Assembly (NCBI RefSeq): GCF_036507355.1
Contig: NZ_AP027877.1
Direction: 5' to 3' (one strand)
DNA: 64,000 nt
Origin: Escherichia coli
Lineage (GTDB): Bacteria > Pseudomonadota > Gammaproteobacteria > Enterobacterales > Enterobacteriaceae
Shown one piece after another: positions 2,437-31,225 of this stretch. The position numbers and the translations under genes are program-made. The notes below the pieces were generated by a model. The model was not told where the DNA came from and did not search any database. It worked only from the letters and a program-made list of their open reading frames with translations. Numbering within the stretch: the first letter of the stretch is position 1; every line of letters starts with the position of its first letter.

Positions 2437-2459
2437 GGTATAACAGGTATAAAGGTGCA
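2437..2459. promoter_or_regulatory. Candidate NanR operator (GGTATA repeats) in the fimB-nanC intergenic region
   Basis: Sequence GGTATAACAGGTATAAAGGTGCA: two exact GGTATA hexamers and one degenerate copy at 9-bp spacing, the known NanR repeat pattern; sits in the ~1.45 kb spacer between divergent fimB and nanC. Confidence 0.5.
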
Positions 2460-2875
2460 CCAAGATAGTCAATGAGACAGGGCATCTTGCAATCTATGGC
2501 AAACATCACTTCAGTTCTTTCTCATCGGGTGATGAAAACGCACTTCAGTCTGAAAGGAATATGAAAATGAGATCAACAGACACTCTATTTTATGACTCCG
2601 GGTAAAATGGATTGAGTAAGTGATATAGCTTACGAACATTCAAATCAATTAAACATCAGAAGAGATTTTATACTCAGGTATTTAATCTGGATCTCTGTTT
2701 ATTTAAATAATGTGAAACGAGAATTTTCACAGGAGACCTTATACAAAAAATATAAAATACAGTTACCCGTTGCCAAAGACACTATAAGCCTGGCAAAAAA
2801 TATTACACAACATAAATGCTAATTGTTTATGCGGGCTTTGTATTGCTTTCTGTATCCTACAAATGAGTGAAATTT

Positions 2876-3592: not shown

Positions 3593-3611
3593 TAGACAGG
3601 AGACAGTCACA

Positions 3612-4718: not shown

Positions 4719-4750
4719 CGCTTCAGGGCCCCGGTAAAGGGGCCCTGCTA
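4718..4750 (+). terminator. Hairpin after nanM (GGGCCCCGGTAAAGGGGCCC)
   Basis: Perfect GC-rich inverted repeat immediately after the nanM stop; no long U-tract, so it may act as an intra-operon attenuator or RNA-stability element rather than a full terminator. Confidence 0.35.
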
Positions 4751-4782
4751 TCAATTTGTCATTTCAATTACGCGAAATTTAT

Positions 4783-5763: not shown

Positions 5764-5770
5764 GCGTTCA

Positions 5771-6025
5771 TTAATTTGATTTATTCGCATCCATCAGCGC
5801 TTTTAACTGCTCCGGCGTAAACGGTGGTTTGCGTCGGTGCAACATCGCATGGCAATTAGGGTACACAGGCAGCAAATCATTAACTGGATCCAGCTGGTAA
5901 TCCTCTTTAATGGCTGACAGCGGCACCAGGTGATGCACATGGATAAAGCCTTCAGCGATATCACCATAGATCTTCACCAGATCAACACCGCATATTCCGT
6001 ATGAACCATACGGAGATTTAACCAT
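5771..6025 (-). CDS. Short HNH-motif protein, possibly a C-terminal remnant of a larger HNH nuclease gene
   Basis: 84-aa translation contains HVHHLVP...N...NCHAMLH (HNH-like His/Asn/His spacing) but lacks a clear first CxxC pair; AT-rich; its start overlaps the start of the divergent HUH gene. Confidence 0.4.
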   Translation of the reverse strand: MVKSPYGSYGICGVDLVKIYGDIAEGFIHVHHLVPLSAIKEDYQLDPVNDLLPVYPNCHAMLHRRKPPFTPEQLKALMDANKSN

Positions 6026-6593
6026 GACCTACAAATACAACCCCTTCTGGCAGCAACGTATTCGTGAGACGGTGCGGCACGCACTGAATGTTCATCCCCG
6101 CCTGACGGCATTGCGGGTTGACCTGCGTCTCCCGGATGTACCGGCAGCAACGGACGCAGCTGTGATATCCCGCTTCATCAATGCCCTGAAAGCCCGAATC
6201 GACGCTTACCAGAAACGTAAGCATCGGGAAGGTAAACGCGTGCATCCCACAACCCTGCATTACGTCTGGGCCCGGGAGTTTGGGGAGTGCAAAGGTAAAA
6301 AACACTATCACCTGATGCTGCTGGTCAACCGGGATACCTGGTGTCGTGCCGGTGATTACCGCGCTCCGGAGTCTCTGGCCGGGATGATTAAACAGGCGTG
6401 GTGCAGTGCCCTGGGAGTGGATGTCGGGTGCCATGCCACGCTGGTGCATTTTCCGGCCTGGCCGGCGGTGTGGCTGGCGCGTAATGATGACACCGGCTTT
6501 CAGCAAGTGCTGGAACGTGCTGACTATCTGGCGAAGGAGTATACCAAAGCTCACTGCACCGGTGAGCGCAATTTTGGCTGTAGCCGGAGTTGA
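6024..6593 (+). CDS. YagK/YfjJ-like (inovirus Gp2-type) protein with HUH-like motif, probable rolling-circle Rep-type nuclease
   Basis: 189-aa ORF; KKHYHLMLLV resembles an HUH motif (His-hydrophobic-His-hydrophobics); resembles YfjJ/YagK proteins of CP4-type cryptic prophages from memory. Confidence 0.55.
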   Translation: MTYKYNPFWQQRIRETVRHALNVHPRLTALRVDLRLPDVPAATDAAVISRFINALKARIDAYQKRKHREGKRVHPTTLHYVWAREFGECKGKKHYHLMLLVNRDTWCRAGDYRAPESLAGMIKQAWCSALGVDVGCHATLVHFPAWPAVWLARNDDTGFQQVLERADYLAKEYTKAHCTGERNFGCSRS

Positions 6594-6846
6594 GCACGAC
6601 TGGCGCGCCAATATCCGGCAAACCAAAAGTATGGGTTGTTGTCTGGCGGCAACGATGTATCCACTCGCCCACTGACTGTTTTTTACGTCAGTGTTCCATT
6701 GTGTGACAACCACAGTGCTGTAACAGCAACCAGCCTGCTTTACCCAAACTCCAGTCCAGATTTTAACTGAACCGCCATTCACACCCTGACCACGCTGCCC
6801 GTACCGGGACGGCTGTTGCCTGCGTGTCGTCTGGCGGCTAAGGAAT

Positions 6847-7254
6847 ATGACTATGTACGCAAAATCCTTTATCGCTCTTGATGGCAACGGACGTCTGACG
6901 GGCGCCCGTACTGCACAGGCCGCACCTTATGCTCACTACACCTGCCACTTGTGTGGCAGTGCACTCAGATACCATCCGCAATACGACACTGAACTTCCCT
7001 GGTTTGAACACACTGACGACAGGCTGACAGAGCACGGTCAACAGTGCCCTTATGTCAGGCCGGAGCGCAGAGAAATACAGTTGATTAAACGTCTGCAGCA
7101 ATTCGTACCGGATGCCTTACCCGTGGTGCGTAAAGCCAGCTGGCACTGCAGACAATGTCACCACGATTATTATGGGGAGCAGTACTGCACACACTGCCAG
7201 ACCGGAGGATTCAGTATTCCCCGGACAACTCAGGAGGAAATATGCGAATTCTGA
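6847..7254 (+). CDS. Cys-rich zinc-ribbon protein, paralog 1
   Basis: 135-aa ORF with CHLCG...PWFEH...WHCRQC...YCTHCQTG; same architecture as the next gene. Confidence 0.5.
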   Translation: MTMYAKSFIALDGNGRLTGARTAQAAPYAHYTCHLCGSALRYHPQYDTELPWFEHTDDRLTEHGQQCPYVRPERREIQLIKRLQQFVPDALPVVRKASWHCRQCHHDYYGEQYCTHCQTGGFSIPRTTQEEICEF

Positions 7255-7676
7255 ACTGTTATATGGCGAATGACAGCAAAGGCCATTTTGTTACGGCGAA
7301 AGAAGCTGCGAAGCACAACCGACAGGACGTTTTGTGCTGTGTGTCCTGTGGATGCCCGTTAACACTTCAGCGGGGCAATGACGGACAACCACCGTGGTTT
7401 GAACATGACCAGATGACTGTCGCTGAAAAAATCCTGCTGCGATGTACCTGGCTTGACCCGGCGGAGAAAGAGGCCCGTCGTTTGCATCTGCAGGGCATGA
7501 CGGTTCCGGATTATACGGTGAAGGTGAGAAAGTGGTTTTGTGTGATGTGTGACGAAGATTATGAGGGGGAAAAGTGCTGCCCACGCTGCGGTACCGGGGT
7601 ATACAGCAGGGCGTGGGGGCGGCAGGAGGTGCCGTCGGAAGATGCCAGGGCTGATAATCCGTTACAGAGGCTGTAA
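7242..7676 (+). CDS. Cys-rich zinc-ribbon protein, paralog 2
   Basis: Start ATG at 7242 preceded by GGAGG RBS and overlapping the last codons of paralog 1; CCVSCG...PWFEH...FCVMC...CCPRCGTG. Confidence 0.5.
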   Translation: MRILNCYMANDSKGHFVTAKEAAKHNRQDVLCCVSCGCPLTLQRGNDGQPPWFEHDQMTVAEKILLRCTWLDPAEKEARRLHLQGMTVPDYTVKVRKWFCVMCDEDYEGEKCCPRCGTGVYSRAWGRQEVPSEDARADNPLQRL

Positions 7677-8009
7677 TGGTTGCCTCCGGAGCAGTTTGCG
7701 GTGATGCCTTTCCCGGGAATGGATTGCCAGTGCGGGGACTGTGGAGCTTAATTCCGGTGTTGGTGGCCTTTCCGTTGATTTTATGCCAACAGCCCCCTGT
7801 GACTGACAGGCTGCCTCGTCATTCCATTCGTATCTCCAGTAACAGGGGGTTGTATTGTATTTTATTGTGCCGGTTCAGGTGTGCGTTTCCCGGCGCGTCT
7901 GCACCGGCTTAACCAAATTCAACAGGGATAAAATAGTGGTAAGCGTACAGCCTGAACCGTCTGGTCAGAATCTGACGAATTAGACAAAGTGGTGTCCACC
8001 AAATAAGTA

Positions 8010-8411
8010 GTGGGAACCAAAGTGTCAGATATGCAGAAAAATGTGACTCCCGGCAGGCGAAAAGGCTGCCCTAATTATCCTCCCGAATTTAAACAGCTGC
8101 TCGTTGCTGCCTCCTGTGAACCCGGGATATCCATCTCAAAACTTGCTCTTGAAAATGGCATTAACGCCAATCTGTTGTTCAAATGGCGACAACAATGGCG
8201 CGAGGGAAAGCTGCTATTACCTTCTTCAGAGAGCCCCCAGCTACTTCCTGTGACTCTCGATGCAGCTGCCGAACAGCCAGAATCGCTCGCAGAGGACCCG
8301 GAAACCCTCAGTATCAGCTGTGAGGTAACGTTCCGGCACGGGACGCTCCGCTTCAATGGCAATGTCAGCGAAAAGCTCCTGACTCTGCTGATACAGGAAC
8401 TGAAGCGATGA
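8010..8411 (+). CDS. IS66-family accessory protein (orfA / TnpA-like)
   Basis: 133-aa ORF with HTH-like N-terminus (ISKLALENGINANLLFKWRQQW), typical of IS66 orfA. Confidence 0.7.
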   Translation: MGTKVSDMQKNVTPGRRKGCPNYPPEFKQLLVAASCEPGISISKLALENGINANLLFKWRQQWREGKLLLPSSESPQLLPVTLDAAAEQPESLAEDPETLSISCEVTFRHGTLRFNGNVSEKLLTLLIQELKR

Positions 8412-8755
8412 TCCCGTTACCTTCCGGGACCAAAATTTGGCTGGTTGCCGGTATCACCGATATGAGAAATGGCTTCAACGGCCTGGCTGCGAAAGTACAA
8501 ACGGCGCTGAAAGACGATCCCATGTCCGGCCATGTTTTCATTTTCCGGGGCCGCAGCGGCAGTCAGGTTAAACTGCTGTGGTCCACCGGTGACGGACTGT
8601 GCCTCCTGACCAAACGGCTGGAGCGTGGGCGCTTCGCCTGGCCGTCAGCCCGTGATGGCAAAGTGTTCCTTACGCAGGCGCAGCTGGCGATGCTGCTGGA
8701 AGGTATCGACTGGCGACAGCCCAAGCGGCTGCTGACCTCCCTGACCATGCTGTAA
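8408..8755 (+). CDS. IS66-family orfB (TnpB-like)
   Basis: 115-aa ORF; MIPLPSGTKIWLVAGITDMRNGFNGLAA... is the IS66 Orf2 signature; start overlaps the orfA stop (ATGA). Confidence 0.75.
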   Translation: MIPLPSGTKIWLVAGITDMRNGFNGLAAKVQTALKDDPMSGHVFIFRGRSGSQVKLLWSTGDGLCLLTKRLERGRFAWPSARDGKVFLTQAQLAMLLEGIDWRQPKRLLTSLTML

Positions 8756-8804
8756 ATCTCTTTATCCTGGTTGTCACAGAATAAGCCCGGTAAAATACGG
8801 GCTT

Positions 8805-10190
8805 ATGAACGACATCTCTTCTGACGACATCTTCCTGCTAAAACAGCGCCTGGCCGAACAGGAAGCGCTGATCCACGCCCTGCAGGAAAAGCTGAGCAAC
8901 CGGGAGCGCGAAATAGACCATCTGCAGGCGCAGCTGGATAAACTCCGCCGGATGAACTTCGGCAGTCGTTCCGAAAAAGTCTCCCGCCGTATCGCACAAA
9001 TGGAAGCCGATCTGAACCGGCTTCAGAAAGAGAGCGATACGCTGACTGGTAGGGTGTATGACCCGGCAGTACAGCGTCCGTTGCGTCAGACCCGCACCCG
9101 TAAGCCGTTCCCTGAATCACTACCCCGTGACGAAAAGCGACTGTTGCCTGCGGCGCCGTGCTGCCCGAACTGCGGCGGTTCACTGAGCTATCTGGGCGAG
9201 GATACCGCCGAACAGCTGGAGTTGATGCGTAGCGCCTTCCGGGTTATCCGGACGGTACGGGAAAAACATGCCTGTACTCAGTGCGATGCCATCGTGCAGG
9301 CACCTGCACCTTCGCGGCCCATCGAGCGGGGTATCGCCGGACCGGGGCTGCTGGCCCGCGTGCTGACCTCGAAGTATGCAGAGCACACCCCGCTGTATTG
9401 CCAGTCAGAAATATACGGCCGGCAAGGTGTGGAGCTGAGCCGTTCACTGCTGTCGGGCTGGGTGGATGCATGCTGCCGGCTGCTGTCTCCGCTGGAAGAG
9501 GCGCTTCATGGCTATGTCATGACTGACGGCAAACTCCATGCCGATGATACCCCGGTCCAGGTACTGCTGCCGGGTAATAAGAAGACGAAGACCGGGCGGT
9601 TGTGGGCGTATGTTCGTGATGACCGCAATGCCGGGTCAGCGTTGGCACCTGCAGTGTGGTTCGCTTACAGCCCGGACAGAAAAGGCATCCATCCGCAGAC
9701 TCATCTTGCTTGCTTCAGCGGTGTGCTGCAAGCGGATGCGTACGCCGGGTTCAACGAGCTGTATCGCAATGGTGGGATAACGGAAGCTGCCTGCTGGGCT
9801 CATGCCCGCCGAAAGATCCACGATGTGCACGTCCGCATCCCGTCAGCACTGACGGAAGAAGCCCTAGAGCAGATCGGTCAGTTGTACGCCATAGAGGCGG
9901 ATATAAGGGGAATGCCGGCAGAGCAGCGGCTTGCTGAACGTCAGCGAAAAACGAAACCGCTGTTGAAATCCCTGGAAAGCTGGTTGCGTGAAAAGATGAA
10001 GACCCTGTTCTTCGGCTCTGGCCATGGTGGTGAGCGGGGAGCGCTACTGTACAGCCTGATCGGGACGTGCAAACTGAATGACGTGGATCCAGAAAGCTAC
10101 CTTCGCCATGTGCCTGGCGTCATAGCAGACTGGCCGGTCAACCGGGTCAGCGAACTGCTTCCGTGGCGCATAGCACTGCCAGCTGAATAA
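8805..10190 (+). CDS. IS66-family transposase (orfC / TnpC), probably carrying an internal in-frame deletion
   Basis: 461-aa ORF with leucine-zipper N-terminus, CxxC...CxxC zinc motif and DDE region; about 50 aa shorter than typical IS66 TnpC, with the conserved region before LFFGS.GGERGA apparently missing. Confidence 0.7.
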   Translation: MNDISSDDIFLLKQRLAEQEALIHALQEKLSNREREIDHLQAQLDKLRRMNFGSRSEKVSRRIAQMEADLNRLQKESDTLTGRVYDPAVQRPLRQTRTRKPFPESLPRDEKRLLPAAPCCPNCGGSLSYLGEDTAEQLELMRSAFRVIRTVREKHACTQCDAIVQAPAPSRPIERGIAGPGLLARVLTSKYAEHTPLYCQSEIYGRQGVELSRSLLSGWVDACCRLLSPLEEALHGYVMTDGKLHADDTPVQVLLPGNKKTKTGRLWAYVRDDRNAGSALAPAVWFAYSPDRKGIHPQTHLACFSGVLQADAYAGFNELYRNGGITEAACWAHARRKIHDVHVRIPSALTEEALEQIGQLYAIEADIRGMPAEQRLAERQRKTKPLLKSLESWLREKMKTLFFGSGHGGERGALLYSLIGTCKLNDVDPESYLRHVPGVIADWPVNRVSELLPWRIALPAE

Positions 10191-10428
10191 CACATCCCCG
10201 TCAATACGGCCCTCGCTGTACGCTTACTTTTGTTCGGACTGCTTATGGCCTTTTTCCACTGGTGTAGCAGGAAAGTTAACCGGCTGCCACCATGAGATGA
10301 CGTGTAAACCGTGCAGGCATGTTTTCACGTGGTGACGCTTTCATTGGGGGTCTACGCCGGAACCCCAATATTGTTCACATACATGAATTTGAAAAACTAA
10401 GCGATACTGCTGTCCGTACCTTATAAAC

Positions 10429-11787
10429 TTATTTCAACGCTTCCGGCAGCGTCACAATCCACAGTTCACTGTCAGACTCCGGTTTCTCCAGTGGCTTCAC
10501 TCTGAGGGTCGTTTCAACCTGCTTGTCGTCAAGCGTCAGCTTTCCTTCCGCGTTCACCCGATAATCCTTGAATGTCTTGCCCTCGACCGGATGTTGCATC
10601 GCCACCTTCACGCCAAAGTCGTTATCGTTCGCCACCGCCAGCGTTTTGCTGTCGATCAGCGCCAACCCTTCAGCCTTCTCCTGCTGCCAGCCCAAGGAGC
10701 GCAGATCAACAACCTGCGTTTTCTGCGCAAGGGTAATGCCGCGCTGTGACAGGGTTTTCTCATCATCAAACTCCGGATACTCACCCGGCTTGTCGAAGCC
10801 TGACAGGTCGCTCGCCTTATTGAGATCGACCTCGTAAATCAGGTTACGCATTCTGTTGTTTTTATCTCTTCCCTGTTCGATCAGCAGGATGTGCTGGTTA
10901 TCGAGCGCCACGATGTCTCCGATTTTAGCGTCGCTGTTTTTGCTGTAGGCCGCGCTGTCGATAGGATAACCGTACATCGCGGTTTTTCCGCTTGCCGGAT
11001 CGAAGCTCACCAGACGCGTAAACAGCGCCTTTTTCTTGCTCTTAGCGTCGATATCCAGCGTACTTTGCACGGCGACAATAATACGCCCGTCCGGCATACG
11101 GGTGAGGCCTTCAAAGCCGCGGTTCGCCTGACGCCATTTGAGGATATTTGGCAAACCGCCCGCAATCGCTTTTTCCCCTTCCGCCGCCTGCGGACCGTGG
11201 ATTGCCAGGATTTTCCCTTTACTGTCGATGTTAATCAGGAACGGGCCATACTCATCGCACAGCCAGTAACCTCCTTTACCATCCGGAGTGATCCCTTCCG
11301 TATCCAGCCCGCGATTATCCCCCTTCAGTCTATGTAACGTGTCGCTGAAGGCCACTTCATTGGTGGAGCCAATCACGTCGCTTGCCAGCGGCAGACCGTT
11401 GATCGCGCCTTTATCGTCATGCAGAGGACGGGGATCGATGGCCTCCGCTTTGCCGTTTTGTACACGAATCGTCATCAGCAGCGGCGCGAAATCTGGCGTA
11501 ACGAAAATTTTAGTTTCGTTTTTCCCCTCTTTCGGTGAATCCGCGTTCGGACCGCGATCGGTAATGGTTGCGAATGTCAGGGCATCGCCCTGTTTACCGG
11601 TGAACAGCAGGCCAGAACCTATCCCAACCGGAAGGCCGTTCGGGAATGCACTGGCAAATGCGCCGGCGTAGTTCACGTGCGTGCCTTCTGGAAAACTGAC
11701 GACATAGCGCTCAGCCGTAGGTTGTGCCGCCAGGGCAGAGAAAGAGAGCGTACAACCGATTAGCACGGGAATAATTTTTCTTTTCAT
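10429..11787 (-). CDS. Secreted phytase-like / esterase-like beta-propeller protein
   Basis: ORF 10429..11802(-); signal peptide MKRKIIPVLIGCTLSFSALAAQP; sequence resembles 'esterase-like activity of phytase' family proteins from memory; no catalytic motif verified. Confidence 0.45.
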   Translation of the reverse strand: MKRKIIPVLIGCTLSFSALAAQPTAERYVVSFPEGTHVNYAGAFASAFPNGLPVGIGSGLLFTGKQGDALTFATITDRGPNADSPKEGKNETKIFVTPDFAPLLMTIRVQNGKAEAIDPRPLHDDKGAINGLPLASDVIGSTNEVAFSDTLHRLKGDNRGLDTEGITPDGKGGYWLCDEYGPFLINIDSKGKILAIHGPQAAEGEKAIAGGLPNILKWRQANRGFEGLTRMPDGRIIVAVQSTLDIDAKSKKKALFTRLVSFDPASGKTAMYGYPIDSAAYSKNSDAKIGDIVALDNQHILLIEQGRDKNNRMRNLIYEVDLNKASDLSGFDKPGEYPEFDDEKTLSQRGITLAQKTQVVDLRSLGWQQEKAEGLALIDSKTLAVANDNDFGVKVAMQHPVEGKTFKDYRVNAEGKLTLDDKQVETTLRVKPLEKPESDSELWIVTLPEALK

Positions 11788-12059
11788 ATTGTTAGCATCC
11801 ATAAAGTGAAGATCACACTACACCATAAAGAAGAAACGAGTCAGGAAAATGACATCGAATGGCAACATGCGCGGGCCTGAGGCCAAAGAAATGTAAAACA
11901 CTGTTGTTATTTGTAACAACGGAAACATTTACGGAAATTATTTGTCTTTCTTCGTGATCAAAAATGCTGTGTCTTGTTGGATTGGAGTGATGAGGGCTGC
12001 GTTTAGGAAACGCCCTATATTGTACGGTTGCATTATCGCGGTAGGGGTAATGCACGTGT

Positions 12060-12200
12060 CAGTATGATGAGCTGACCACACTCACGTGGGTGGACTGGTA
12101 TAACAATCGACGATTGCTGGAAAGGCAGGGCCATATCCCACCGGCAGAAGCAGAAAAAGCTTATTATGCTTCCATCGGAAACGATGATCTGGCAGCCTGA
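12060..12200 (+). pseudogene. IS3-family transposase C-terminal remnant
   Basis: Translates to ...QYDELTTLTWVDWYNNRRLLERQGHIPPAEAEKAYYASIGNDDLAA*, the typical C-terminal tail of IS3-family OrfB; the upstream part of the gene is absent. Confidence 0.4.
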
Positions 12201-12298
12201 GTTCACAGATAAAACACTCTCCAGGAAACCCGGGGCGGTTCACTTAGCCGCGTGTCCATTATTGCTGGATAAGATCATAACGAGGTAATGACTCCAAC

Positions 12299-12802
12299 TT
12301 ATTGATAGTGTTTTATGTTCAGATAATGCCCGATGACTTTGTCATGCAGCTCCACCGATTTTGAGAACGACAGCGACTTCCGTCCCAGCCGTGCCAGGTG
12401 CTGCCTCAGATTCAGGTTATGCCGCTCAATTCGCTGCGTATATCGCTTGCTGATTACGTGCAGCTTTCCCTTCAGGCGGGATTCATACAGCGGCCAGCCA
12501 TCCGTCATCCATATCACCACGTCAAAGGGTGACAGCAGGCTCATAAGACGCCCCAGCGTCGCCATCGTGCGTTCACCGAATACGTGCGCAACAACCGTCT
12601 TCCGGAGCCTGTCATACGCGTAAAACAGCCAGCGCTGGCGCGATTTAGCCCCGACATAGCCCCACTGTTCGTCCATTTCCGCGCAGACGATGACGTCACT
12701 GCCCGGCTGTATGCGCGAGGTTACCGACTGCGGCCTGAGTTTTTTAAGTGACGTAAAATCGTGTTGAGGCCAACGCCCATAATGCGGGCTGTTGCCCGGC
12801 AT
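12299..12802 (-). CDS. insB: IS1 InsB (expressed as InsAB' by -1 frameshift)
   Basis: Translation ...[74 protein letters not shown]... matches IS1 InsB. Confidence 0.85.
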
Positions 12803-12996
12803 CCAACGCCATTCATGGCCATATCAATGATTTTCTGGTGCGTACCGGGTTGAGAAGCGGTGTAAGTGAACTGCAGTTGCCATGTTTTACGACAGTGAGA
12901 GCAGAGATAGCGCTGATGTCCGGCGGTGCTTTTGCCGTTACGCACCACCCCGTCAGTAGCTGAACAGGAGGGACAGCTGATAGAAACAGAAGCCAC
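12721..12996 (-). CDS. insA: IS1 InsA
   Basis: [43 protein letters not shown]... identical in character to IS1 InsA. Confidence 0.85.
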
Positions 12997-13065
12997 TGGA
13001 GCACCTCAAAAACACCATCATACACTAAATCAGTAAGTTGGCAGCATCACCGGCCTCGCATTTAA

Positions 13066-13911
13066 TTATTCATTTAAAGATTCAAGAAATGTCCAGCCTT
13101 TATGAGTAACATAATACATTTGTCCTTTTGCCCCTCTTTCAATCACAAAATCAAAGGATAACAGTTCGTTAAGTGCGCCCTCCCAACGGGCTACCTCTCT
13201 AGCCGAACTTCCACCAAAGGATTGATTTCCCGCTTGAATATCCGTGCCACCTAAATGCCTTATCACATAAATTGTTCCGCTATCATCGACACATGCCAAT
13301 TTCAGCAAACTGAGTGCATCGGCGGACAAATTACTTTCTGGCAAAGATTGACTTGTATTCGCATCAGGAGAATTGTTAATGGTAGATATAAGAGAAGACA
13401 AATAAGGGCTACTAGAAATAATTATCGAAAGTTGCCTACGGACTTTGTCTTTGAAATCAGATAAGTCATTAAAAGACTCTATCAATCCCTTTTGCATGCA
13501 CTCAATTTTGAACAATTTAAGAGACTCATATTGTTCTCTATCAAGGCTTTCAGGGGCAACAGGCTTTGAGGAAAAGTAAATCATTGCCGGTTTTCCCGCA
13601 TTCAAATGACGGTGAATTTCTTCGACTGTTCCGCTGGCCTCGTTCCCAGTCGGTGAGCCTAGACGAGTCCAAAACACACCGATTAATAAATCACAATCTA
13701 CTAATAATCTTTGATTAATCAACTCCTGAGGCCTAACTCCTAATTCGGGTGATGTATGAGTTTCCCATCCAATTGGTGTCAACATTACTTTTGAACGAGC
13801 TGAATTTATATCATTCCACTCATGGATCATTTCACGAATGACTTGTCTCTCTTCAGCGACATCACCAGGAGAAGCAATCATTACAGGGATAACAGTTGCT
13901 GTGTAAGCCAT
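13066..13911 (-). CDS. Hypothetical protein with N-terminal DUF4062-like (TIR/STIR-like) domain and uncharacterised C-terminal domain
   Basis: 281-aa AT-rich ORF with GGAGAG RBS; N-terminus VMIASPGDVAEERQVIREMI...CDLLIGVFWTRLGSPTG...SGTVEEIHRHLNAGKPAMIYFSS fits the DUF4062 pattern as I recall it; start lies 14 nt after the recombinase stop; IS1 ends 14 bp past its stop. Confidence 0.5.
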   Translation of the reverse strand: MAYTATVIPVMIASPGDVAEERQVIREMIHEWNDINSARSKVMLTPIGWETHTSPELGVRPQELINQRLLVDCDLLIGVFWTRLGSPTGNEASGTVEEIHRHLNAGKPAMIYFSSKPVAPESLDREQYESLKLFKIECMQKGLIESFNDLSDFKDKVRRQLSIIISSSPYLSSLISTINNSPDANTSQSLPESNLSADALSLLKLACVDDSGTIYVIRHLGGTDIQAGNQSFGGSSAREVARWEGALNELLSFDFVIERGAKGQMYYVTHKGWTFLESLNE

Positions 13912-13924
13912 AAACTCTCCATAT

Positions 13925-14485
13925 TCAATCGGTAATAGCTGCTACAGTCGCTCTTGAAACGCCATATTGACGCGCTAACGCACTGATACTCAAACCGCTA
14001 TTCTTTTTCTCTAAAATCTCTCTACGGGCTTCTGACGCGATTTTAGGAGGTCTGCCCAATTTCTTACCTTCGGCTTTTGCTCGTGATAGTCCCGCCTGAG
14101 TGCGCTCAATCAGCAGATCACGCTCCATCTCCGCAACCGCGGCGAGCATAGATAATAGCAACTTCCCAGCGGCAGAAGTGAGATCTGTGTTACCAAGCTG
14201 GTGGACAAGAACCTTGATATTACGGTCAGCCAGCGCCCTTACCGTTTGCAGGACGTCAATCGCATCACGCCCCAGACGATCAAGCTTCGCTACCACCAAC
14301 GTTTCACCATCGCGGATTTTATTGAGCATTTCAGAAAATGCTTTACGTTGCATTGCCGGAACCTTCCCGCTAACAACATCGGCAAACCAGTAATCAATTT
14401 GCCACCCAGCCTGCCCAAGCTCCAGCCGTTGGTTCTCAGTATCCTGCTGCGATGTCGAAACACGTCCGTAGCCAAAAGTTGCCAT
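13925..14485 (-). CDS. Small serine recombinase (resolvase/invertase family)
   Basis: ORF 13925..14554(-); true start likely MATFGYGRVSTSQQDTENQ (catalytic Ser motif GYxRVSTxxQ) with GGGGAG RBS; C-terminal HTH SISALARQYGVSRATV; about 186 aa. Confidence 0.75.
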   Translation of the reverse strand: MATFGYGRVSTSQQDTENQRLELGQAGWQIDYWFADVVSGKVPAMQRKAFSEMLNKIRDGETLVVAKLDRLGRDAIDVLQTVRALADRNIKVLVHQLGNTDLTSAAGKLLLSMLAAVAEMERDLLIERTQAGLSRAKAEGKKLGRPPKIASEARREILEKKNSGLSISALARQYGVSRATVAAITD

Positions 14486-14507
14486 TGTTATCTCCCCATC
14501 TGACCCC

Positions 14508-14604
14508 TGCCAGAAAACGAGGCCAACATTAGGATGGCCTGCCAGAAAAGCCAAGGCTATTTTTCCAACAGTGTGAAAGCGTGCGATTGGGAGGTGCCAG
14601 AAAA
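14508..14604. repeat. Three direct copies of TGCCAGAAAA upstream of the serine recombinase start; candidate res-like binding sites/operator
   Basis: TGCCAGAAAA at 14508-14517, 14540-14549 and 14595-14604 (spacings 32 and 55 bp), 23-120 bp upstream of the recombinase start codon. Confidence 0.4.
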
Positions 14605-15460
14605 CGGTCGATTGATGACACCATCAAACACTAACAGTGTGCCCCGGCAACGCGCGCCTGCAACGGTTGTCTCGGATGAGCAAAATCTTAGGGTTTTCTC
14701 AGCGACCCCTGACGCGCGGGCACGCACATGCTCACGGGGGCGCGGGCGAGCTATACAGTTGAGGGAGGGGCAACCATAAGCGTGCAATTTTTCAAGCCGG
14801 GGATTCAGCTATAGGCTAACGGTAGAATGCGGCTTGTAGAGGGTTGTGCGCACATACCCAGTACAATCGCATTACTCCACGCGCACAAACCCCGGAGAGC
14901 CGCTTGCGGTGGGGGTTTAAGAGGTACAATTTTTGGTTCGGGTCATAAAGGACTTTTGAGAGCTGACTTAGCTTATTTAAACTGCATTCGTCTTGGCTAT
15001 GGAGACACGAGGCAGCTCAAGTTTTGTTCAAAACTTTGCAATATTTTGGTTCGATCTCATGTTCTCGTGCTAAAGAAATCAGCACTCGATCAAATTTTCA
15101 TTTTTTTTCTGAAACATTGACATACAGCCTAAGCCTTAAGGCACGTAGGGTTGGTCGAAATTTCCCTTTGACAACCTCAATTTAACCTCAAAATCAACCC
15201 TTGTACTGCAAAGAATCCTAACTAGAATGCTGAACATGTAGGGGGGAATCTTATTAACACACCCTATATGTTGTGCTCATGTATAAATGATGGGCATAAA
15301 AAAACCGGAGTCACCTGCGTGAATCCGGTCTATGAAGCATGACCGCCATGAGTCTGCAAACTCATAACGATTGTTAGCCTCACTATCGTTTCTAACGGCT
15401 CGATTGTGCCCGGCTTGGTTGGTTATGTAAACAGTAAGATAAAATCAAAAGGAACGATCC

Positions 15461-16375
15461 ATGCTTATTCAGAAAAAGCGTATTCGAAATATTGATAATT
15501 ACATACCTAACTTTGATGGCCGTGATATCTACATTGCACATTCTTTGCCAGATGCGGGGAAAACGGACTCTATTGGTTTCTCAAGTCAAAGAGCTTTAGG
15601 TGAAGAAGTCCTCCCCAAGATTTTAGGGCCAATAACCAGATTCAATGCTAATGGCAAATCAGTACCTGACAAAACAGCACCTAAAGAAACTGCATACAGA
15701 CAAATTTCATGGACTAGAAAGCAATGGATCGGAGGGGGCGCAACTCAAGAAGTTACTGACACTCGTGAAATTGAGTATAAGCGCTACAAGAGAATCCTCA
15801 CCCCTCCACCAAGCATAGAGTTAAAGATTGTAGAGAATCTTCAAGGGGAGAAGTTGATCATCTCTCCAAAGCTAAGTTTGACAGCTAACAACAAAGAGTT
15901 AGTGGCTCACTGCATTAATCTTTTTTTAGAGCTTTTTGGGTTGTGCGAAACTGTTGACGACCAACTTAATACCATCGTTAAAAGTAAATCTATAAAACTA
16001 AACTGGAGCCTCCTGCCTCAGGGTCAACAGCCTTGGAGTACTATCGGTTCAAAAATCCTTTCAGCTATTAAGATCAGGGGAAAGGGCAATACCGCTGTTG
16101 TTGAAGGCAGACTTGAACTTATCAATAGTAAAAAACCAGATTTCGTAGCGGTTGGGCAAGCTGGGTTCCAAGGCTACGTGATATTTGGGTTCACAGGCCA
16201 AAACATTTACGTGCTAGAAAGCTCACAATGTAATAACGCAACTTATATACTTAACAATAATTGGCAGCAGTTATCCCAGCTAACTAAAGCCGAAATACTA
16301 GACGGAAACTTGCACCATGCCCGTGTCATCCACCGTGTAAACTGGGCAGCAGAAATACTTAAATACTTACCATAA
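15461..16375 (+). CDS. Hypothetical protein (304 aa), AT-rich orphan gene adjacent to leuX
   Basis: Uninterrupted 304-aa ORF with RBS AAAGGAA upstream; strongly AT-biased codon usage; no motif I can assign; ends ~510 bp from the tRNA 3' end. Confidence 0.5.
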   Translation: MLIQKKRIRNIDNYIPNFDGRDIYIAHSLPDAGKTDSIGFSSQRALGEEVLPKILGPITRFNANGKSVPDKTAPKETAYRQISWTRKQWIGGGATQEVTDTREIEYKRYKRILTPPPSIELKIVENLQGEKLIISPKLSLTANNKELVAHCINLFLELFGLCETVDDQLNTIVKSKSIKLNWSLLPQGQQPWSTIGSKILSAIKIRGKGNTAVVEGRLELINSKKPDFVAVGQAGFQGYVIFGFTGQNIYVLESSQCNNATYILNNNWQQLSQLTKAEILDGNLHHARVIHRVNWAAEILKYLP

Positions 16376-16888
16376 AGCGCCGGACGCGCGGGAATGAACC
16401 CCCGCGCACTTTCAAACATACCGCAATAGAATCCATAAAGCCCCGTTGGTGGTAAGACAACAAGCGGAGCCTCTGGCGACTACATCACAGTTATGTCAGT
16501 TAGTGAGGCTTATCAGGATGACCATGTACCCAAGGGGAGCGAGGCCGAACCGCTGGCAGAGCTTGCATATGGTCTGCAAGTACCGTGACCACCATAAACC
16601 TGTTTATCCCCTGCGGCGTCTCGCGACAGCGGCAGAACGGGGGCATCGGGCTAAAATGCGCTTCACTAAAAGTTTTTGGGATTGTTTAGAGACAGTGGCT
16701 ACGTCATAGCTTTCAAGTTGAGTCAGTACGTGTTTGACGCTTGGAACTACACGCCGCTATGAGTTAACATCCCAATTACCACTATCAACCACAGCGGCTT
16801 TTTCAAGGGACATAACAGAGCATTTCTTACAGGCAAAAGAGACAGATTTTATTGTCTAACTACCTGTATTGTAAGGAATTTAGTGACT

Positions 16889-16973
16889 TGGTGCCGAAGG
16901 CCGGACTCGAACCGGCACGTATTTCTACGGTTGATTTTGAATCAACTGCGTCTACCGATTTCGCCACTTCGGC
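16889..16973 (-). tRNA. leuX: tRNA-Leu (CAA anticodon)
   Basis: Reverse complement reads GCCGAAGTGGCGAAATCGGTAGACGCAGTTGATTCAAAATCAACCGTAGAAATACGTGCCGGTTCGAGTCCGGCCTTCGGCACCA: 85 nt, long variable arm, CAA anticodon loop, 3' CCA. Confidence 0.9.
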
Positions 16974-17168
16974 ACTGAAGAGGTATGCGGAAAACGTTGT
17001 GGATTATACCTGTCGCACGCCACCATGCAAGCGCCAGCTTGCTCGCACCTCGCTAAGTGCTGAAATTTTCAGCATTGCATACAGCGATGTGTAACCTTTG
17101 TCACACTCCAGGCACCCCGCCCTGCCATGCTCTACACTTCCCAGACAACACCAGAGAAGGACCAAAAA

Positions 17169-18188
17169 ATGTCGATGATAAAAAGCTATGCCGCAAAAGA
17201 AGCAGGCGGCGAACTGGAAGTTTATGAGTACGATCCCGGTGAACTGAAGCCACAAGATGTTGAAGTGCAGGTGGATTACTGCGGGATCTGCCATTCCGAT
17301 CTGTCGATGATCGATAACGAATGGGGATTTTCACAATATCCGCTGGTTGCCGGGCATGAGGTGATTGGTCGCGTGGTGGCGCTCGGGAGCGCCGCGCAGG
17401 ATAAAGGTTTGCAGGTCGGTCAGCGTGTCGGGATTGGCTGGACGGCGCGTAGCTGCGGGCATTGCGATGCCTGTATTAGCGGTAATCAGATCAACTGTGA
17501 GCAAGGTGCGGTGCCGACGATTATGAATCGCGGTGGCTTTGCCGAGAAGTTGCGTGCGGACTGGCAATGGGTGATTCCACTGCCAGAAAATATTGATATC
17601 GAGTCCGCCGGGCCGCTGTTGTGCGGTGGTATCACGGTCTTCAAACCACTGTTAATGCACCATATCACTGCCACCAGCCGCGTTGGGGTAATTGGTATTG
17701 GCGGGCTGGGGCATATCGCTATAAAACTTCTGCACGCAATGGGATGCGAGGTGACAGCCTTTAGTTCGAATCCGGCGAAAGAGCAGGAAGTACTGGCGAT
17801 GGGTGCCGATAAAGTGGTGAATAGCCGCGATCCGCAGGCACTGAAAGCACTGGCGGGGCAGTTTGATCTCATTATCAACACCGTCAACGTCAGCCTCGAC
17901 TGGCAGCCTTATTTTGAAGCGCTGACGTACGGCGGTAATTTCCATACGGTCGGTGCGGTTCTCACGCCGCTGTCTGTTCCGGCCTTTACGTTAATTGCGG
18001 GCGACCGCAGCGTCTCTGGTTCTGCTACCGGCACGCCTTATGAGTTGCGTAAGCTGATGCGCTTTGCCGCCCGCAGCAAGGTTGCGCCGACTACCGAATT
18101 GTTCCCGATGTCGAAAATTAACGACGCCATTCAGCATGTACGCGATGGTAAAGCGCGCTACCGAGTGGTCCTGAAAGCCGACTTCTGA
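17169..18188 (+). CDS. ahr: NADPH-dependent aldehyde reductase (Zn-dependent alcohol dehydrogenase family)
   Basis: ORF 17127..18188(+); [45 protein letters not shown]..., zinc-ADH motifs (GHE, CxxC) and GxGxxG NADP site; matches Ahr/YjgB. Confidence 0.9.
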
Positions 18189-18317
18189 TCCCTTTGCCGG
18201 GTGCCTGTCGCCCGGCACTTAAATCTCTTTGGAAGGCGTCTCGCAATCTGCTGAATTTAGCGGTGAAGAGTGCGCAGCCGTTGCCTATACTCCAGGCAGG
18301 AAACTGGAGGAAATCTC

Positions 18318-19820
18318 ATGAGCGAACCCCTGTTAATTGCCCGCACGCCGGACACAGAACTATTTTTACTGCCGGGAATGGCTAACCGTCACGGGCTGAT
18401 TACTGGCGCAACGGGGACGGGTAAAACTGTCACGCTGCAAAAACTGGCGGAGTCTCTATCGGAAATCGGTGTTCCGGTGTTTATGGCCGATGTGAAAGGC
18501 GATCTGACCGGCATCGCGCAGGCAGGAACGGCGTCGGAAAAACTGCTCGCAAGGCTTAAAAATATCGGCGTCAATGACTGGCAACCGCATGCCAATCCGG
18601 TGGTGGTGTGGGATATCTTTGGCGAGAAAGGCCATCCGGTGCGGGCGACGGTTTCGGATCTGGGGCCGCTGTTGTTGGCGCGGCTGTTGAATCTCAACGA
18701 TGTGCAGTCTGGCGTGCTGGATATCATCTTCCGCATTGCTGACGATCAGGGGCTGTTACTGCTCGACTTTAAAGATTTGCGGGCGATTACCCAGTACATC
18801 GGCGATAACGCCAAATCTTTCCAGAATCAGTACGGAAATATCAGTAGCGCATCGGTTGGTGCCATCCAGCGCGGGCTGTTGTCGCTGGAACAGCAAGGCG
18901 CAGCACACTTCTTTGGTGAGCCGATGCTGGATATCAAAGACTGGATGCGCACCGATGCCAACGGTAAAGGCGTTATCAATATCCTCAGCGTCGAGAAGCT
19001 TTATCAGATGCCGAAACTGTATGCCGCCAGCCTGTTGTGGATGCTCTCGGAGTTGTATGAACAATTGCCGGAAGCGGGCGATCTGGAGAAACCAAAACTG
19101 GTGTTTTTCTTCGACGAGGCACATCTGCTGTTTAACGATGCACCGCAGGTACTGCTGGATAAGATTGAGCAGGTGATAAGGCTTATTCGCTCAAAAGGCG
19201 TGGGCGTCTGGTTCGTTTCGCAAAATCCGTCCGATATTCCGGATAACGTGCTCGGCCAGCTCGGTAATCGCGTTCAACACGCTTTGCGAACTTTTACGCC
19301 CAAAGATCAGAAAGCGGTAAAAGCTGCGGCGCAAACCATGCGGGTCAATCCGGCATTTGATACCGAAAAGGCGATTCAGGAACTGGGCACCGGCGAGGCG
19401 TTGATCTCTTTTCTGGATGCGAAAGGAAGCCCTTCTGTGGTGGAACGGGCGATGGTGATTGCGCCTTGTTCGCGGATGGGACCGATGACGGAAGATGAGC
19501 GTAATGGCTTGATTAATCACTCTCCGGTGTATGGCAAGTACGAGGATGACGTGGACCGGGAATCCGCCTATGAGATGTTGCAAAAAGGCGTACAGGCAAG
19601 CGCCGAGCAGCAAAATAATCCTGCCGTGAAAGGGAAAGAGGTGGCGGTGGATGACGGCATTCTTGGTGGATTGAAGGATATTTTGTTTGGCACTACCGGA
19701 CCACGCGGCGGGAAGAAAGATGGTGTGGTGCAAACAATGGCGAAAAGCGCCGCCCGCCAGGTGACGAATCAGATTGTACGTGGGATGTTGGGGAGTTTGC
19801 TGGGGGGAAGAAGAAGGTAA
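18318..19820 (+). CDS. yjgR: DUF853-family P-loop NTPase
   Basis: ORF 18270..19820(+); start [10 protein letters not shown] with GGAGG RBS; Walker A GATGTGKT; matches YjgR from memory. Confidence 0.85.
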
Positions 19821-19980: not shown

Positions 19981-21063
19981 TTACGATTTTCTCATTAACA
20001 GCCACAGGCTGATTAAGAAGAAGCTGGCGCTTGGCAACAGTGCGCCGATGATCGGCGGGATGCCATAAACCAACGTCAGCGGGCCGAAGATCTGGTCCAG
20101 TACATAGAAGACAAAACCGAAGCTGATACCGGTGACCACACGCACACCCATCGGTACGCTACGCAGTGGGCCAAAGATGAACGACAGCGCCATCAGCATC
20201 ATCACCGCCACGGATAGCGGCTGGAAGATTTTGCTCCACATGTTGAGCTGATAACGTCCGGCATCCTGACCGCTCGATTTCAGATACTTCACATAGTTGT
20301 GCAAACCGCTGATAGAGAGTGCATCCGGATCCAGCGCCACCACGCCCAGTTTGTCAGGCGTGAGGTTGGTTTTCCAGGTGCCGCTCACCGTCTGCGAACC
20401 GGTGATCTGTTTCGGATTGGTCAGATCAGATTCATCAATCTGCGACAGACGCCAGACTTTATGTTCCGGGTCAAACTTCGCGGTAGCGGCATAGCGTACG
20501 GATTGCAGACGACGATTCTCGTTAAAGGCATAAATACTGATGCCACCTAACTCTTCGTCACCTTTAACCCGCTCAATGTAGACGAAGTTGTTGCCATCTT
20601 TCGCCCATAAACCTTGCTGGGTAGAGAGCAACGAGCCGCCGTACATCGCCTGCGCACGGTAGTTACGCGCCATCTGCTCGCCCTGCGGCGCGACCCATTC
20701 GCCAATCGCCATCGTCAGCAAGACCAGCGGAATGGCGGTTTTCATCACCGACAGCGCCACCTGCATACGGGTAAAACCAGAAGCCTGCATCACCACCAGT
20801 TCGCTGCGCTGCGCCAGCATCCCAAGACCAAGCAACGCCCCAAGCAAAGCCGCCATCGGGAAGAATATTTGCACATCTTTCGGCACGCTCAGCAAGGTAT
20901 ACATTCCTGCGCCTAACGCGTCGTAGCTCCCCTGCCCGGCTTTTTTCAACTGATCGACAAATTTGATAATGCCCGACAGCGACACCAGCATGAACAGCGT
21001 CATCATGATGGTGGTGAAAATAGTTTTACCGATATAGCGGTCAAGTACGCCAAAAGGTTGCAT
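19981..21063 (-). CDS. lptG: LPS export ABC transporter permease LptG
   Basis: Translation MQPFGVLDRYIGKTIFTTIMMTLFMLVSLSGIIKFVDQLKKAGQG... matches LptG; 1-nt overlap with the lptF stop. Confidence 0.9.
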   Translation of the reverse strand: MQPFGVLDRYIGKTIFTTIMMTLFMLVSLSGIIKFVDQLKKAGQGSYDALGAGMYTLLSVPKDVQIFFPMAALLGALLGLGMLAQRSELVVMQASGFTRMQVALSVMKTAIPLVLLTMAIGEWVAPQGEQMARNYRAQAMYGGSLLSTQQGLWAKDGNNFVYIERVKGDEELGGISIYAFNENRRLQSVRYAATAKFDPEHKVWRLSQIDESDLTNPKQITGSQTVSGTWKTNLTPDKLGVVALDPDALSISGLHNYVKYLKSSGQDAGRYQLNMWSKIFQPLSVAVMMLMALSFIFGPLRSVPMGVRVVTGISFGFVFYVLDQIFGPLTLVYGIPPIIGALLPSASFFLISLWLLMRKS

Positions 21064-22163
21064 CACACCGCTCCTTTACGCGAAAAACTGGCGCGCAGGC
21101 GGCGGACCGGCACAGTGTCCCAAAGGTTGAGAACAATCGCCAAAGCCAGATAAATCAGGTTAACGGTCCACATCCACAGCGTCGGGTCCAGCTTACCTTT
21201 ACCGCCGTTCGATTTCAGGGAGGTCTGGATCAGGAAGAAAAGTAGATACAGCAGCATGGCTGGCAGCATCGACAGTACGCGTCCCTGACGCGGGTTAACC
21301 ACGCTCAACGGTACAACCATAAGTGCCATCATAAACACGGTGAATACCAACGTGATACGCCAGTTCAGTTCTGCGCGGGCACGATCGGTGTCAGTGTTCC
21401 ACAATGTGCGCATGTCCATCTGGTCGGTATCGTTCGGGTCGAGCGCCACCGCCTGGTGACCAATGATCGCCTGATAATCCTGGAAATCCGTAATGCGGAA
21501 ATCACGTAACAGTGCAGTGCCTTCGAAGCGCGTTCCCTGGTTGAGAGTGACGACCTGGGAGCCGTCGCGCAGCTGGGTTAAATGTCCGGAATCGGCCACC
21601 ACCACAGAAGGTCGTGCATTACCTTTTGGTCGAATTTGTGCGAGGAACACATCTTTGAAATCGCTGCCGTCAACGCTTTCGATGAACAGCACCGAGCTGC
21701 CATTAGTCGCTTGCTGGAATTGCCCTTGCGCCAGCGCCGCCATGCCAGGGTTCGCTTTCGCTTCTGCTAACACTTCATCCTGATGACGCGATGACCACGG
21801 TCCCGCCCACATCACGTTAACCGCCGCGACGATTGCCGTGAATACCGCAAGGATCATTGCCGCTTTCACCAGAACCGCTTTGCTCAGGCCGCAGGCATGC
21901 ATTACCGTAATTTCACTTTCGGTATACAGTTTGCCCAGCGTCATCAGCAGCCCGAGGAACAGGCTTAATGGCAGGATAAGCTGCGCCATTTCCGGCACGC
22001 CCAACCCGAGAAGGGAGAGCACCAGATTCGCCGGAATATCGCCGTCAACCGCTGCGCCGAGGATCCTCACTAACTTTTGACAGAAGAAGATCAAAAGCAA
22101 GATGAAGAGTATCGCCAGCTGGCTTTTGAGCGTCTCCCGCACCAGATATCTTATGATTATCAC
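21063..22163 (-). CDS. lptF: LPS export ABC transporter permease LptF
   Basis: Translation MIIIRYLVRETLKSQLAILFILLLIFFCQKLVRILGAAVDGDIP... matches LptF. Confidence 0.9.
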   Translation of the reverse strand: MIIIRYLVRETLKSQLAILFILLLIFFCQKLVRILGAAVDGDIPANLVLSLLGLGVPEMAQLILPLSLFLGLLMTLGKLYTESEITVMHACGLSKAVLVKAAMILAVFTAIVAAVNVMWAGPWSSRHQDEVLAEAKANPGMAALAQGQFQQATNGSSVLFIESVDGSDFKDVFLAQIRPKGNARPSVVVADSGHLTQLRDGSQVVTLNQGTRFEGTALLRDFRITDFQDYQAIIGHQAVALDPNDTDQMDMRTLWNTDTDRARAELNWRITLVFTVFMMALMVVPLSVVNPRQGRVLSMLPAMLLYLLFFLIQTSLKSNGGKGKLDPTLWMWTVNLIYLALAIVLNLWDTVPVRRLRASFSRKGAV

Positions 22164-29580: not shown

Positions 29581-29586
29581 AATTAA

Positions 29587-30003
29587 TTAGTGGCGAACAC
29601 CGTCATCGTCTTCATCGACAAAATCTTCATCGTCGCCGTCTTCGCCATTGGGATCTTCAAAGTAAGTGCCCCAACCGTCGTACTCAACGTCAAATTTCTC
29701 CGCCAGCGTCATCAGTTGTTCAACCTGGGCATCGATCAGATCGGCATTCAACGCGCACTCGCTGAGGATGTCGCAGCAAATCACGATATCACCATCTTCA
29801 ACTTCCAGCTCTTCTGGATCGGTCACTTCGTAACCGAGTTTAAACGCTTCAACTGCTGCTTTTTCCAGGGTTTCCAGATCGTCTGCGGAAAGATGGTGTT
29901 CGATGGTGTACAGCGCGTCCGGATCGCTGCCATCTTCCAGTAATTCTTCAATAATCAAACGTGTTTCTTCACGCTGTTCTTCCAGTTGTTCCGGGTTTGC
30001 CAT
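29587..30003 (-). CDS. rraB: RNase E regulator RraB (acidic protein)
   Basis: 138-aa highly acidic [63 protein letters not shown]... Confidence 0.85.
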
Positions 30004-30102
30004 GGCTCATTCCTCTTAATGTCCTGCCGATACTCTTATTGTCACACACCACTGACATTGCCTCCACCTTTGTGACAAAGATTTATGCTTTAGACTTGCA
30101 AA

Positions 30103-30139
30103 TGAATAATCATCCATATAAATTGAATTTTAATTCATT
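30103..30139. promoter_or_regulatory. Tandem ARG boxes (ArgR operator) upstream of argI
   Basis: TGAATAATCATCCATATAAATTGAATTTTAATTCATT: two adjacent 18-bp units with TGAAT...ATTCA symmetry, about 25 bp upstream of the argI start. Confidence 0.55.
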
Positions 30140-30164
30140 GAGGCATTAGCCACAGGAGGGATCT

Positions 30165-31169
30165 ATGTCCGGGTTTTATCATAAGCATTTCCTGAAATTA
30201 CTCGATTTCACGCCAGCTGAACTCAACACCTTGTTGCAGTTAGCCGCGAAGCTGAAAGCCGATAAGAAAAGCGGTAAAGAAGAAGCTAAACTCACTGGTA
30301 AAAACATCGCGCTCATCTTCGAAAAAGACTCGACTCGTACCCGATGCTCTTTCGAAGTTGCCGCATATGACCAGGGTGCTCGTGTTACTTATCTCGGCCC
30401 AAGCGGCAGCCAGATTGGTCATAAAGAGTCGATTAAAGACACTGCCCGCGTGCTTGGTCGCATGTATGACGGTATTCAGTATCGCGGCTATGGTCAGGAG
30501 ATTGTCGAAACACTGGCGGAATACGCTGGCGTGCCGGTATGGAACGGCCTGACCAATGAGTTTCACCCCACGCAGCTGCTGGCGGATCTCCTCACCATGC
30601 AGGAGCATTTGCCCGGTAAAACATTCAACGAAATGACGCTGGTCTATGCAGGTGACGCACGTAACAACATGGGCAATTCGATGCTCGAAGCTGCGGCGCT
30701 TACCGGTCTGGATTTGCGTCTGGTCGCGCCACAGGCATGCTGGCCGGAAGCTGCGCTGGTTACGGAATGCCGCGCTCTGGCACAGCAAAATGGCGGGAAT
30801 ATTACGCTGACGGAAGATGTAGCCAAAGGAGTAGAAGGTGCTGACTTTATCTATACCGATGTGTGGGTGTCGATGGGGGAAGCAAAAGAGAAATGGGCGG
30901 AACGAATTGCATTGCTGCGTGATTATCAGGTGAATAACAAGATGATGCAGTTGACCGGTAACCCGGAGGTCAAATTCCTCCACTGCCTGCCCGCGTTTCA
31001 TGACGACCAAACGACGCTTGGCAAGAAAATGGCGGAAGAGTTTGGCCTACATGGCGGAATGGAAGTGACTGATGAGGTCTTCGAATCTGCCGCCAGCATT
31101 GTATTTGATCAGGCGGAAAACCGCATGCATACCATCAAAGCGGTGATGGTCGCGACGCTCAGTAAATAA
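30165..31169 (+). CDS. argI: Ornithine carbamoyltransferase
   Basis: 334-aa ORF with carbamoyl-phosphate binding STRTR and HCLP motifs; argI rather than paralog argF is inferred from the rraB/yjgL/valS neighbourhood. Confidence 0.85.
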
Positions 31170-31225
31170 TTGATATCGCTATAAAGATGCCGGGAAATAC
31201 AAAACTATCCCGGCATCACATTATT

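Follow-up and report, generated by a model that had tools for sequence, protein, structure and literature searches.

Organization of the ahr-yjgR region

The window, by which we mean the whole 64-kb stretch of E. coli DNA analysed here, carries on its forward strand the gene ahr (yjgB; 17169..18188), which encodes an NADPH-dependent aldehyde reductase of 339 amino acids. The protein matches the NCBIfam equivalog NF047908 with 554 bits, for a cut-off of 470, and shares 99.7% amino-acid identity with the Ahr protein of K-12. Its frame ends with a TGA at 18186-18188, while the first ATG of the open reading frame is found at 17127 and the annotated start of the 339-aa product at 17169. On the left side of ahr, the reverse strand encodes leuX (16889..16973), a tRNA-Leu(CAA) gene detected by ARAGORN and by the Rfam tRNA model (59.4 bits), and placed with respect to ahr as it is in K-12. 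It is the left-hand landmark of the locus and a known site of island integration.

A spacer of 129 bp (18189-18317) separates ahr from yjgR (18318..19820, forward strand, ATG at 18318-18320), and the preliminary description of this DNA was therefore exact when it placed the two genes about 130 bp apart at these positions. The yjgR gene was recognized from its open reading frame and from the 97.5% identity of its product with K-12 YjgR, and its name is carried in more than 5,000 RefSeq genomes. It is predicted to encode a 500-aa ATPase with a DUF853 / HerA-like C-terminal domain. Many database entries for YjgR (P0002, P0003, P0050 and others) are 531 to 560 aa long instead of 500 aa, and one RefSeq yjgR (L095, 1719-3314) is annotated with about 93 nt more than in other strains; these length variants look like gene-calling differences rather than biology. 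To the right of yjgR are the genes for LptG and LptF, of which lptG (19981..21066, reverse strand; NCBIfam TIGR04408, 454 bits) is the first low-diversity core gene on this side of the locus.

A tblastn search of the 64-kb window with the five Idn proteins of K-12 revealed no orthologue of idnK, idnD, idnO, idnT or idnR and no idn remnants, in agreement with the absence of idn from the ahr-yjgR site that had been reported before. The only matches, located around ahr, bdcA and treR, are distant paralogues with 21 to 33% identity. Lacking the genes that define the GntII cluster class, the window belongs to the class of empty ahr-yjgR junctions, and it lies outside any integrative-element class, with neither an integrase nor an att site.

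The DNA to the left of leuX contains a fimB/E-like recombinase gene (819-1451, reverse strand), nanC, nanM and a nanS-like gene (2867-5763), an IS66 transposase gene (8805-10190), a gene for a phytase-like esterase (10429-11802, reverse strand), an IS1 (12299-12802, reverse strand), a resolvase gene (13925-14554, reverse strand), a 281-aa open reading frame between these last two and a 304-aa open reading frame (15461-16375). No P4-type integrase was found beside leuX in the window. The genome of YZLc1-3, which is otherwise the closest, has a dnd/dpt island on this side; a similar left flank was considered for the window and rejected, as similarity starts only at leuX and positions 1-16888 do not correspond to that island. 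A second divergent patch relative to YZLc1-3 covers the rraB-argF-yjgL area (29583-32183), with 90.9% identity and 17 gaps, its neighbours being 97 to 99% identical.

Comparison with E. coli K-12

The order of genes in MG1655 (NC_000913.3) is lptG-yjgR-idnR-idnT-idnO-idnD-idnK-ahr-leuX, and the idn genes are annotated at 4490141-4495186, between yjgR and ahr. This bears out the K-12 map given in the preliminary description, which had idnK and idnDOTR between ahr and yjgR. The cluster idnK-idnDOTR constitutes the GntII locus of K-12 (Bausch et al. 1998, J Bacteriol 180:3704, as cited in PMC3251573). It occupies the same chromosomal site as the region studied here, and ahr, leuX, yjgR, lptG, lptF and pepA are collinear with the window. 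The K-12 locus however holds five idn genes, whereas the window lacks all five and has 90 bp instead.

Alignment with K-12 at the ahr-yjgR junction, suggested earlier as a way to check the difference, gave exact limits by blastn. Homology stops precisely at the stop codon of ahr (window 18188, K-12 4495190) and restarts 39 bp before the ATG of yjgR, at window 18279 (K-12 4490102). The window has between these points a segment of 90 bp (18189-18278) specific to the empty allele, as compared with 5,087 bp in K-12 (4490103-4495189), where the stop codon of idnK is 3 bp from that of ahr and the stop codon of idnR 38 bp from the sequence shared with the window. Outside the junction, the divergence between the two genomes amounts to 3.4% for ahr and 4.4% for yjgR, and to the left of leuX their DNA is different.

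Anatomy of the empty spacer

The empty spacer is made of three parts, namely a stem-loop following ahr, a conserved block at 18240-18271 and the 39 bp proximal to yjgR. The description of the first two draws on an alignment of nine sequences, including the window, in which the whole empty spacer with its hairpin and its 18240-18271 block could be aligned. They come from four E. coli (the window among them), E. albertii, a fergusonii-type contig, so called because its YjgR is a member of a cluster bearing the name E. fergusonii, a type from a cryptic clade represented by Escherichia sp. TW14182, Citrobacter koseri and C. werkmanii.

The stem-loop (GCCGGGTG...CGCCCGGC) and its T-rich tail stand right after the ahr stop codon, on the forward strand (18195..18230). 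A consensus scan reported them as a terminator-like site, although the tail is only moderately T-rich, and the minimum-free-energy fold gives the stem-loop (18195-18217) a stem of 9 bp; the folding of the whole spacer is unexceptional (z = -1.29). The stem is kept in 8 of the 9 sequences, with two pairs changed on both sides. It is probably the terminator of ahr, a function suggested by the fold and its conservation. The second part, CTCGCAATCTGCTGAATTTAGCGGTGAAGAGT (18240..18271, forward strand), is retained in every empty allele, in Escherichia as in Citrobacter, and missing from the occupied ones; its conservation makes it a presumed regulatory region upstream of yjgR. The yjgR-proximal part (18279..18317, forward strand), where homology with K-12 restarts, is common to the empty alleles, the idn-occupied alleles and Enterobacter alleles occupied by a dihydroxyacetone-kinase-like (DAK) gene. 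It holds TATACT (18286-18291), a candidate -10 element, and GGAGG (18306-18310), a putative Shine-Dalgarno sequence; a scan of the spacer for a sigma-70 consensus promoter of yjgR found no site. A small RNA in the spacer was also considered and rejected for want of an Rfam family match: the covariance search of 16700-18500 at E <= 1 returned the leuX tRNA alone.

The preliminary description had proposed to look for scars or repeats at 18189-18317, and there the search was unsuccessful, with only short repeats at chance level in the spacer. At the borders of the K-12 cassette no 7-mer, direct or inverted, is shared within 80 bp on either side. We thus find no scar and no target-site duplication. 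The K-12 cassette contains five idn genes and no mobility gene, and where IS elements interrupt idn, as they do in some strains, they were inserted secondarily. Residual homology between the two alleles was assessed by comparing the 90-bp segment of the empty allele with the 38-bp tail that follows idnR in four occupied alleles, and 12 comparisons against shuffles gave no consistent homology. The best residual match was the 12-mer TCYCTTTGCCGG, which 18 of 2,000 shuffles also attained and which does not keep a consistent place from one taxon to another; we therefore treat it as due to chance. Since the 90-bp and 38-bp segments have no reliable homology, no single simple event would turn either allele into the other.

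Frequency of the two states in E. coli

The intact 230-bp empty junction is present in 3,211 of the 5,426 complete E. coli genomes (59%), and is thus their majority state; the use of a 3-kb ahr-yjgR stretch as query gave a concordant count of 3,212. At least 80% of the K-12 cassette is found in 2,039 of the 5,426 (38%), with a median of one matching place per genome. Among the matches listed, cassette-less genomes have the 39 bp upstream of yjgR as their sole match, and they therefore carry no second idn copy. The remaining 3% or so was sampled through two examples, an IS-disrupted idn cluster and a locus with a truncated ahr.

Empty-allele strains include O157:H7, O145, O111:H8, ATCC 8739 and an ST648 strain. 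Their junctions have the same 129-bp spacer and are 94.7 to 100% identical to that of the window over 230 bp, the O145 strain RM9872 being identical, while their ahr and yjgR flank haplotypes differ from those of the window by up to about 6%. The occupied strains comprise, among others, K-12 and its derivatives, BL21-type strains and APEC O2:K1:H4. The absence of idn had initially been read as marking a non-K-12 strain. The strain is indeed not K-12, as judged from the divergence of ahr and yjgR and from the DNA left of leuX, but the absence of idn says little on its identity, because the empty state is that of the majority, ATCC 8739 and O157:H7 included. It means just that the strain does not resemble K-12 at this site, as is the case for 59% of complete genomes.

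Some loci depart from the two intact states. In strain OkiPb01690 (L101, 416-5015) idnK is split by an IS30 and idnO by an IS1, an example of decay of the occupied allele. Strain 50EVA (L090, 8746-8981) has only a fragment of ahr, beside a leuX island, and two cryptic-clade contigs (L085, 7735-7881; L086, 7753-7881) have only the 3' end of ahr; in all three, the empty spacer and yjgR are intact.

The ahr-yjgR slot in other taxa

The outgroup sample comprised about 10 loci. A genome scan with YjgR yielded at least seven Enterobacterales loci (E. albertii, two Citrobacter, two Enterobacter and two Yersinia), and the sample was widened through representatives of the YjgR and IdnD clusters and contig look-ups. 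The occupied allele, with the same gene order, was found in Citrobacter sp. FP75 and C. amalonaticus, and the cassette has the same site and limits in these two as in seven idn+ loci of E. coli. Their occupied alleles have in common the right-hand limit (G/A)TTGCCTATACTC. A Salmonella-type contig (L103, 3282-10627), designated so because the 343-aa members of the cluster to which its IdnD belongs bear the name Salmonella enterica, shows ahr-idnK-idnDOTR followed directly by lptG; yjgR is absent from it, and a vestige of the sequence upstream of yjgR (TTGCCTGTGCT) remains after idnR. With the empty spacer also present in both Escherichia and Citrobacter, the sequences compared indicate that the two alleles either predate or have crossed genus boundaries.

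Other arrangements exist. Two Enterobacter loci (L006, 8217-9863; L007, 8224-9930) have in the ahr-yjgR slot, on the opposite strand, a gene for a dihydroxyacetone-kinase-like protein of 548 to 568 aa, so that the cargo received by the slot differs from one genus to another. In one of them, Enterobacter cloacae DSM 26481, which was checked, homology with the window starts at GTTGCCTATACTCC. Since Enterobacter shares this right-hand limit while carrying a different gene, the limit at GTTGCCTATACTCC may be the edge of a conserved control region of yjgR rather than a recombination breakpoint. In Kluyvera intermedia (L104, 8261-13274) an idnK/idnDOTR module, whose proteins are 79 to 92% identical to those of K-12, lies between metallophosphatase and chemoreceptor genes, away from ahr and yjgR.

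Diversity and mosaic structure of the flanks

The flanks were compared in 14 E. coli loci, 8 of them empty (three with identical ahr) and 6 occupied. When the strains are classed by idn state, the mean pairwise divergence of ahr is 3.7 to 4.0% within classes and 4.6% between them, and that of yjgR 4.5% and 4.7%. The idea that flank haplotypes are sorted by idn state was thus rejected, neither ahr nor yjgR clustering in this way. Only the very end of ahr is perfectly linked to the idn state in the E. coli strains compared, reading GAC TTC TGA in empty alleles and GAT TTT TGA in occupied ones. The linkage does not extend beyond about 15 nt from the ahr stop codon, and the flanks are mosaic.

Among the six occupied strains, nucleotide diversity is 3.95% in ahr, then 1.25% in idnK, 0.83% in idnD, 0.38% in idnO, 0.57% in idnT and 0.65% in idnR, and rises again to 4.46% in yjgR before reaching 1.51% in lptG. 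The steps are sharp and fall exactly at the cassette borders (L091-L102). As the diversity of the cassette is comparable to, and mostly below, that of lptG, it is the flanks that are the unusual part. Two deeply diverged haplotype blocks were also seen in yjgR, at about 18490-18540 of the window (sites 211-260 when the count begins 39 nt before the ATG). One of them is common to E. coli A10, APEC O2:K1:H4, the fergusonii-type contig and E. albertii, which suggests trans-species polymorphism or introgression.

The locus (4.49 Mb in K-12) falls within the phylogenetically incongruent region of 4421-4618 kbp around leuX and fim (Touchon et al. 2009, PMC2617782), and ahr and yjgR have mosaic haplotypes with 4 to 4.5% diversity. 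That region was described there at a resolution of 5 kb; the passages of PMC2617782 on leuX or "4618 kbp" make no statement on the ahr/yjgR slot. The flanks may owe their extra diversity to imports from idn-less relatives, a route impossible for the interior of the cassette. Alternatively, balancing selection on the indel itself may be responsible.

Origin of the two alleles

We propose that the ahr-yjgR site is an old one with two alleles, of which 18189-18317 represents the empty one (probability about 0.85). The difference from K-12 is an old presence/absence polymorphism, with no fresh deletion and no scar. The empty allele is the complete 129-bp intergenic region, and in the occupied allele a self-contained 5.1-kb module, consisting of idnK and idnDOTR and assigned to the GntII pathway for L-idonate and 5-ketogluconate, takes the place of its first 90 bp. 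The alleles would be exchanged between lineages through homologous recombination within ahr and yjgR, inside the leuX/fim hot region. From the mosaic flanks of the 14 E. coli strains this is the most likely mode of exchange, in which we infer that no site-specific element takes part.

An artefact of assembly or of the window that joined ahr and yjgR can be practically discounted, for the junction is crossed by one continuous match, up to 100% identical, in 3,211 complete genomes out of 5,426; with a 230-bp junction intact in so many, the adjacency is neither chance nor misassembly. The same number of genomes with an identical junction speaks against a recent loss of idn in the lineage of this strain, where the 129-bp spacer would be a deletion scar. 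An idn+ ancestor is conceivable, idn adjoining ahr in three genera, and the IS30 and IS1 insertions of OkiPb01690 show that decay happens. A deletion however cannot create 90 conserved bp that are missing from the occupied alleles, and these 90 bp, hairpin included, are conserved in E. albertii, C. koseri and C. werkmanii. No idn remnant was left in the window either, and we regard a recent deletion as very improbable. Equally improbable is the converse view, that idn is a mobile island recently acquired horizontally by the K-12 lineage and that the window shows the untouched ancestral site. The low G+C content of the cassette (47.3% in K-12, against 54-56% in the flanks) and its diversity of 0.4 to 1.25%, against about 4% in the flanks, would fit this view. 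But the cassette is present in 2,039 genomes as different as K-12, BL21-type strains and APEC O2:K1:H4, the same junction is occupied in Citrobacter and in the Salmonella-type contig, integrase, transposase and border repeats are all missing, and the low diversity is comparable with that of the neighbouring lptG (1.5%) or, for the most part, below it, the flanks being the unusual part. As both alleles are found in Escherichia and in Citrobacter with the same yjgR-side limit, the event that produced them is old, and is no acquisition by the K-12 lineage.

If the polymorphism is indeed old, either allele may have come first. The common ancestor of Escherichia, Citrobacter and Salmonella could already have had the order ahr-idn-yjgR, a single old deletion or replacement having made the empty allele, which then spread. 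The position of idn beside ahr in three genera and the right-hand limit common to E. coli, two Citrobacter and the Salmonella-type contig are consistent with such a history, and so is the identity of the Idn proteins between E. coli and Citrobacter (80 to 97%), similar to that of Ahr, YjgR and LptFG (91 to 97%). The G+C content of the cassette moreover tracks that of the host, with 47.3%, 50.3% and 53.9%, which suggests long residence. In each of the three hosts, however, it stays 4 to 8 points under the flanks (54-56%, 56.1% and 58%, respectively), the sequence of the empty spacer has no counterpart in occupied alleles, four sampled Escherichia/Citrobacter species are empty, and in Kluyvera intermedia the five-gene module sits in an unrelated context. 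An occupied ancestor is thus possible, but we consider it doubtful. We lean slightly towards the opposite polarity, with an older empty allele into which the module was inserted, because of the G+C deficit of the cassette in three hosts, because the idn module also exists elsewhere, in Kluyvera, and because the empty spacer looks like a complete and conserved intergenic region. The preliminary description had regarded idn as an accessory insertion; its accessory nature is confirmed (2,039 of 5,426 genomes, always in one place), and insertion is the favoured direction of the event.

Relation to previous work and biological meaning

The variability of idn gene content is already documented in the pangenome literature. 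In the passages that deal with idn, idnK/D/O/T/R are reported as accessory, with a frequency of 83% among pks+ genomes and about 31% among pks- ones (PMC8545132), idnK as absent from the ST131 strains JJ1886 and S250 and present in SE15 (PMC5369007), and the genes for L-idonate degradation as enriched in HUS-associated STEC (PMC4216125). Those same idn passages contain nothing on the junction, the sequence of the empty allele or its distribution across genera. What the present analysis contributes is the exact anatomy of both alleles and their sharing across genera without a signature of mobility.

A more far-reaching and quite tentative interpretation is that the slot is a trans-species balanced polymorphism, both alleles having been kept since before the split of Escherichia and Citrobacter by niche-dependent selection on the use of L-idonate and 5-ketogluconate. 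If this were true, the nucleotide diversity of ahr and yjgR, 3- to 10-fold in excess and changing in steps exactly at the borders of the cassette, would be a footprint of selection and not a by-product of the leuX hot spot.

As no second copy of idn exists in the window or in other empty-allele genomes, the IdnD/IdnO route for L-idonate is probably missing from the strain, which is not expected to use it for L-idonate and 5-ketogluconate. Metabolic models built on K-12 over-predict the IdnD/IdnO capacity when applied to about 60% of the complete genomes of E. coli.
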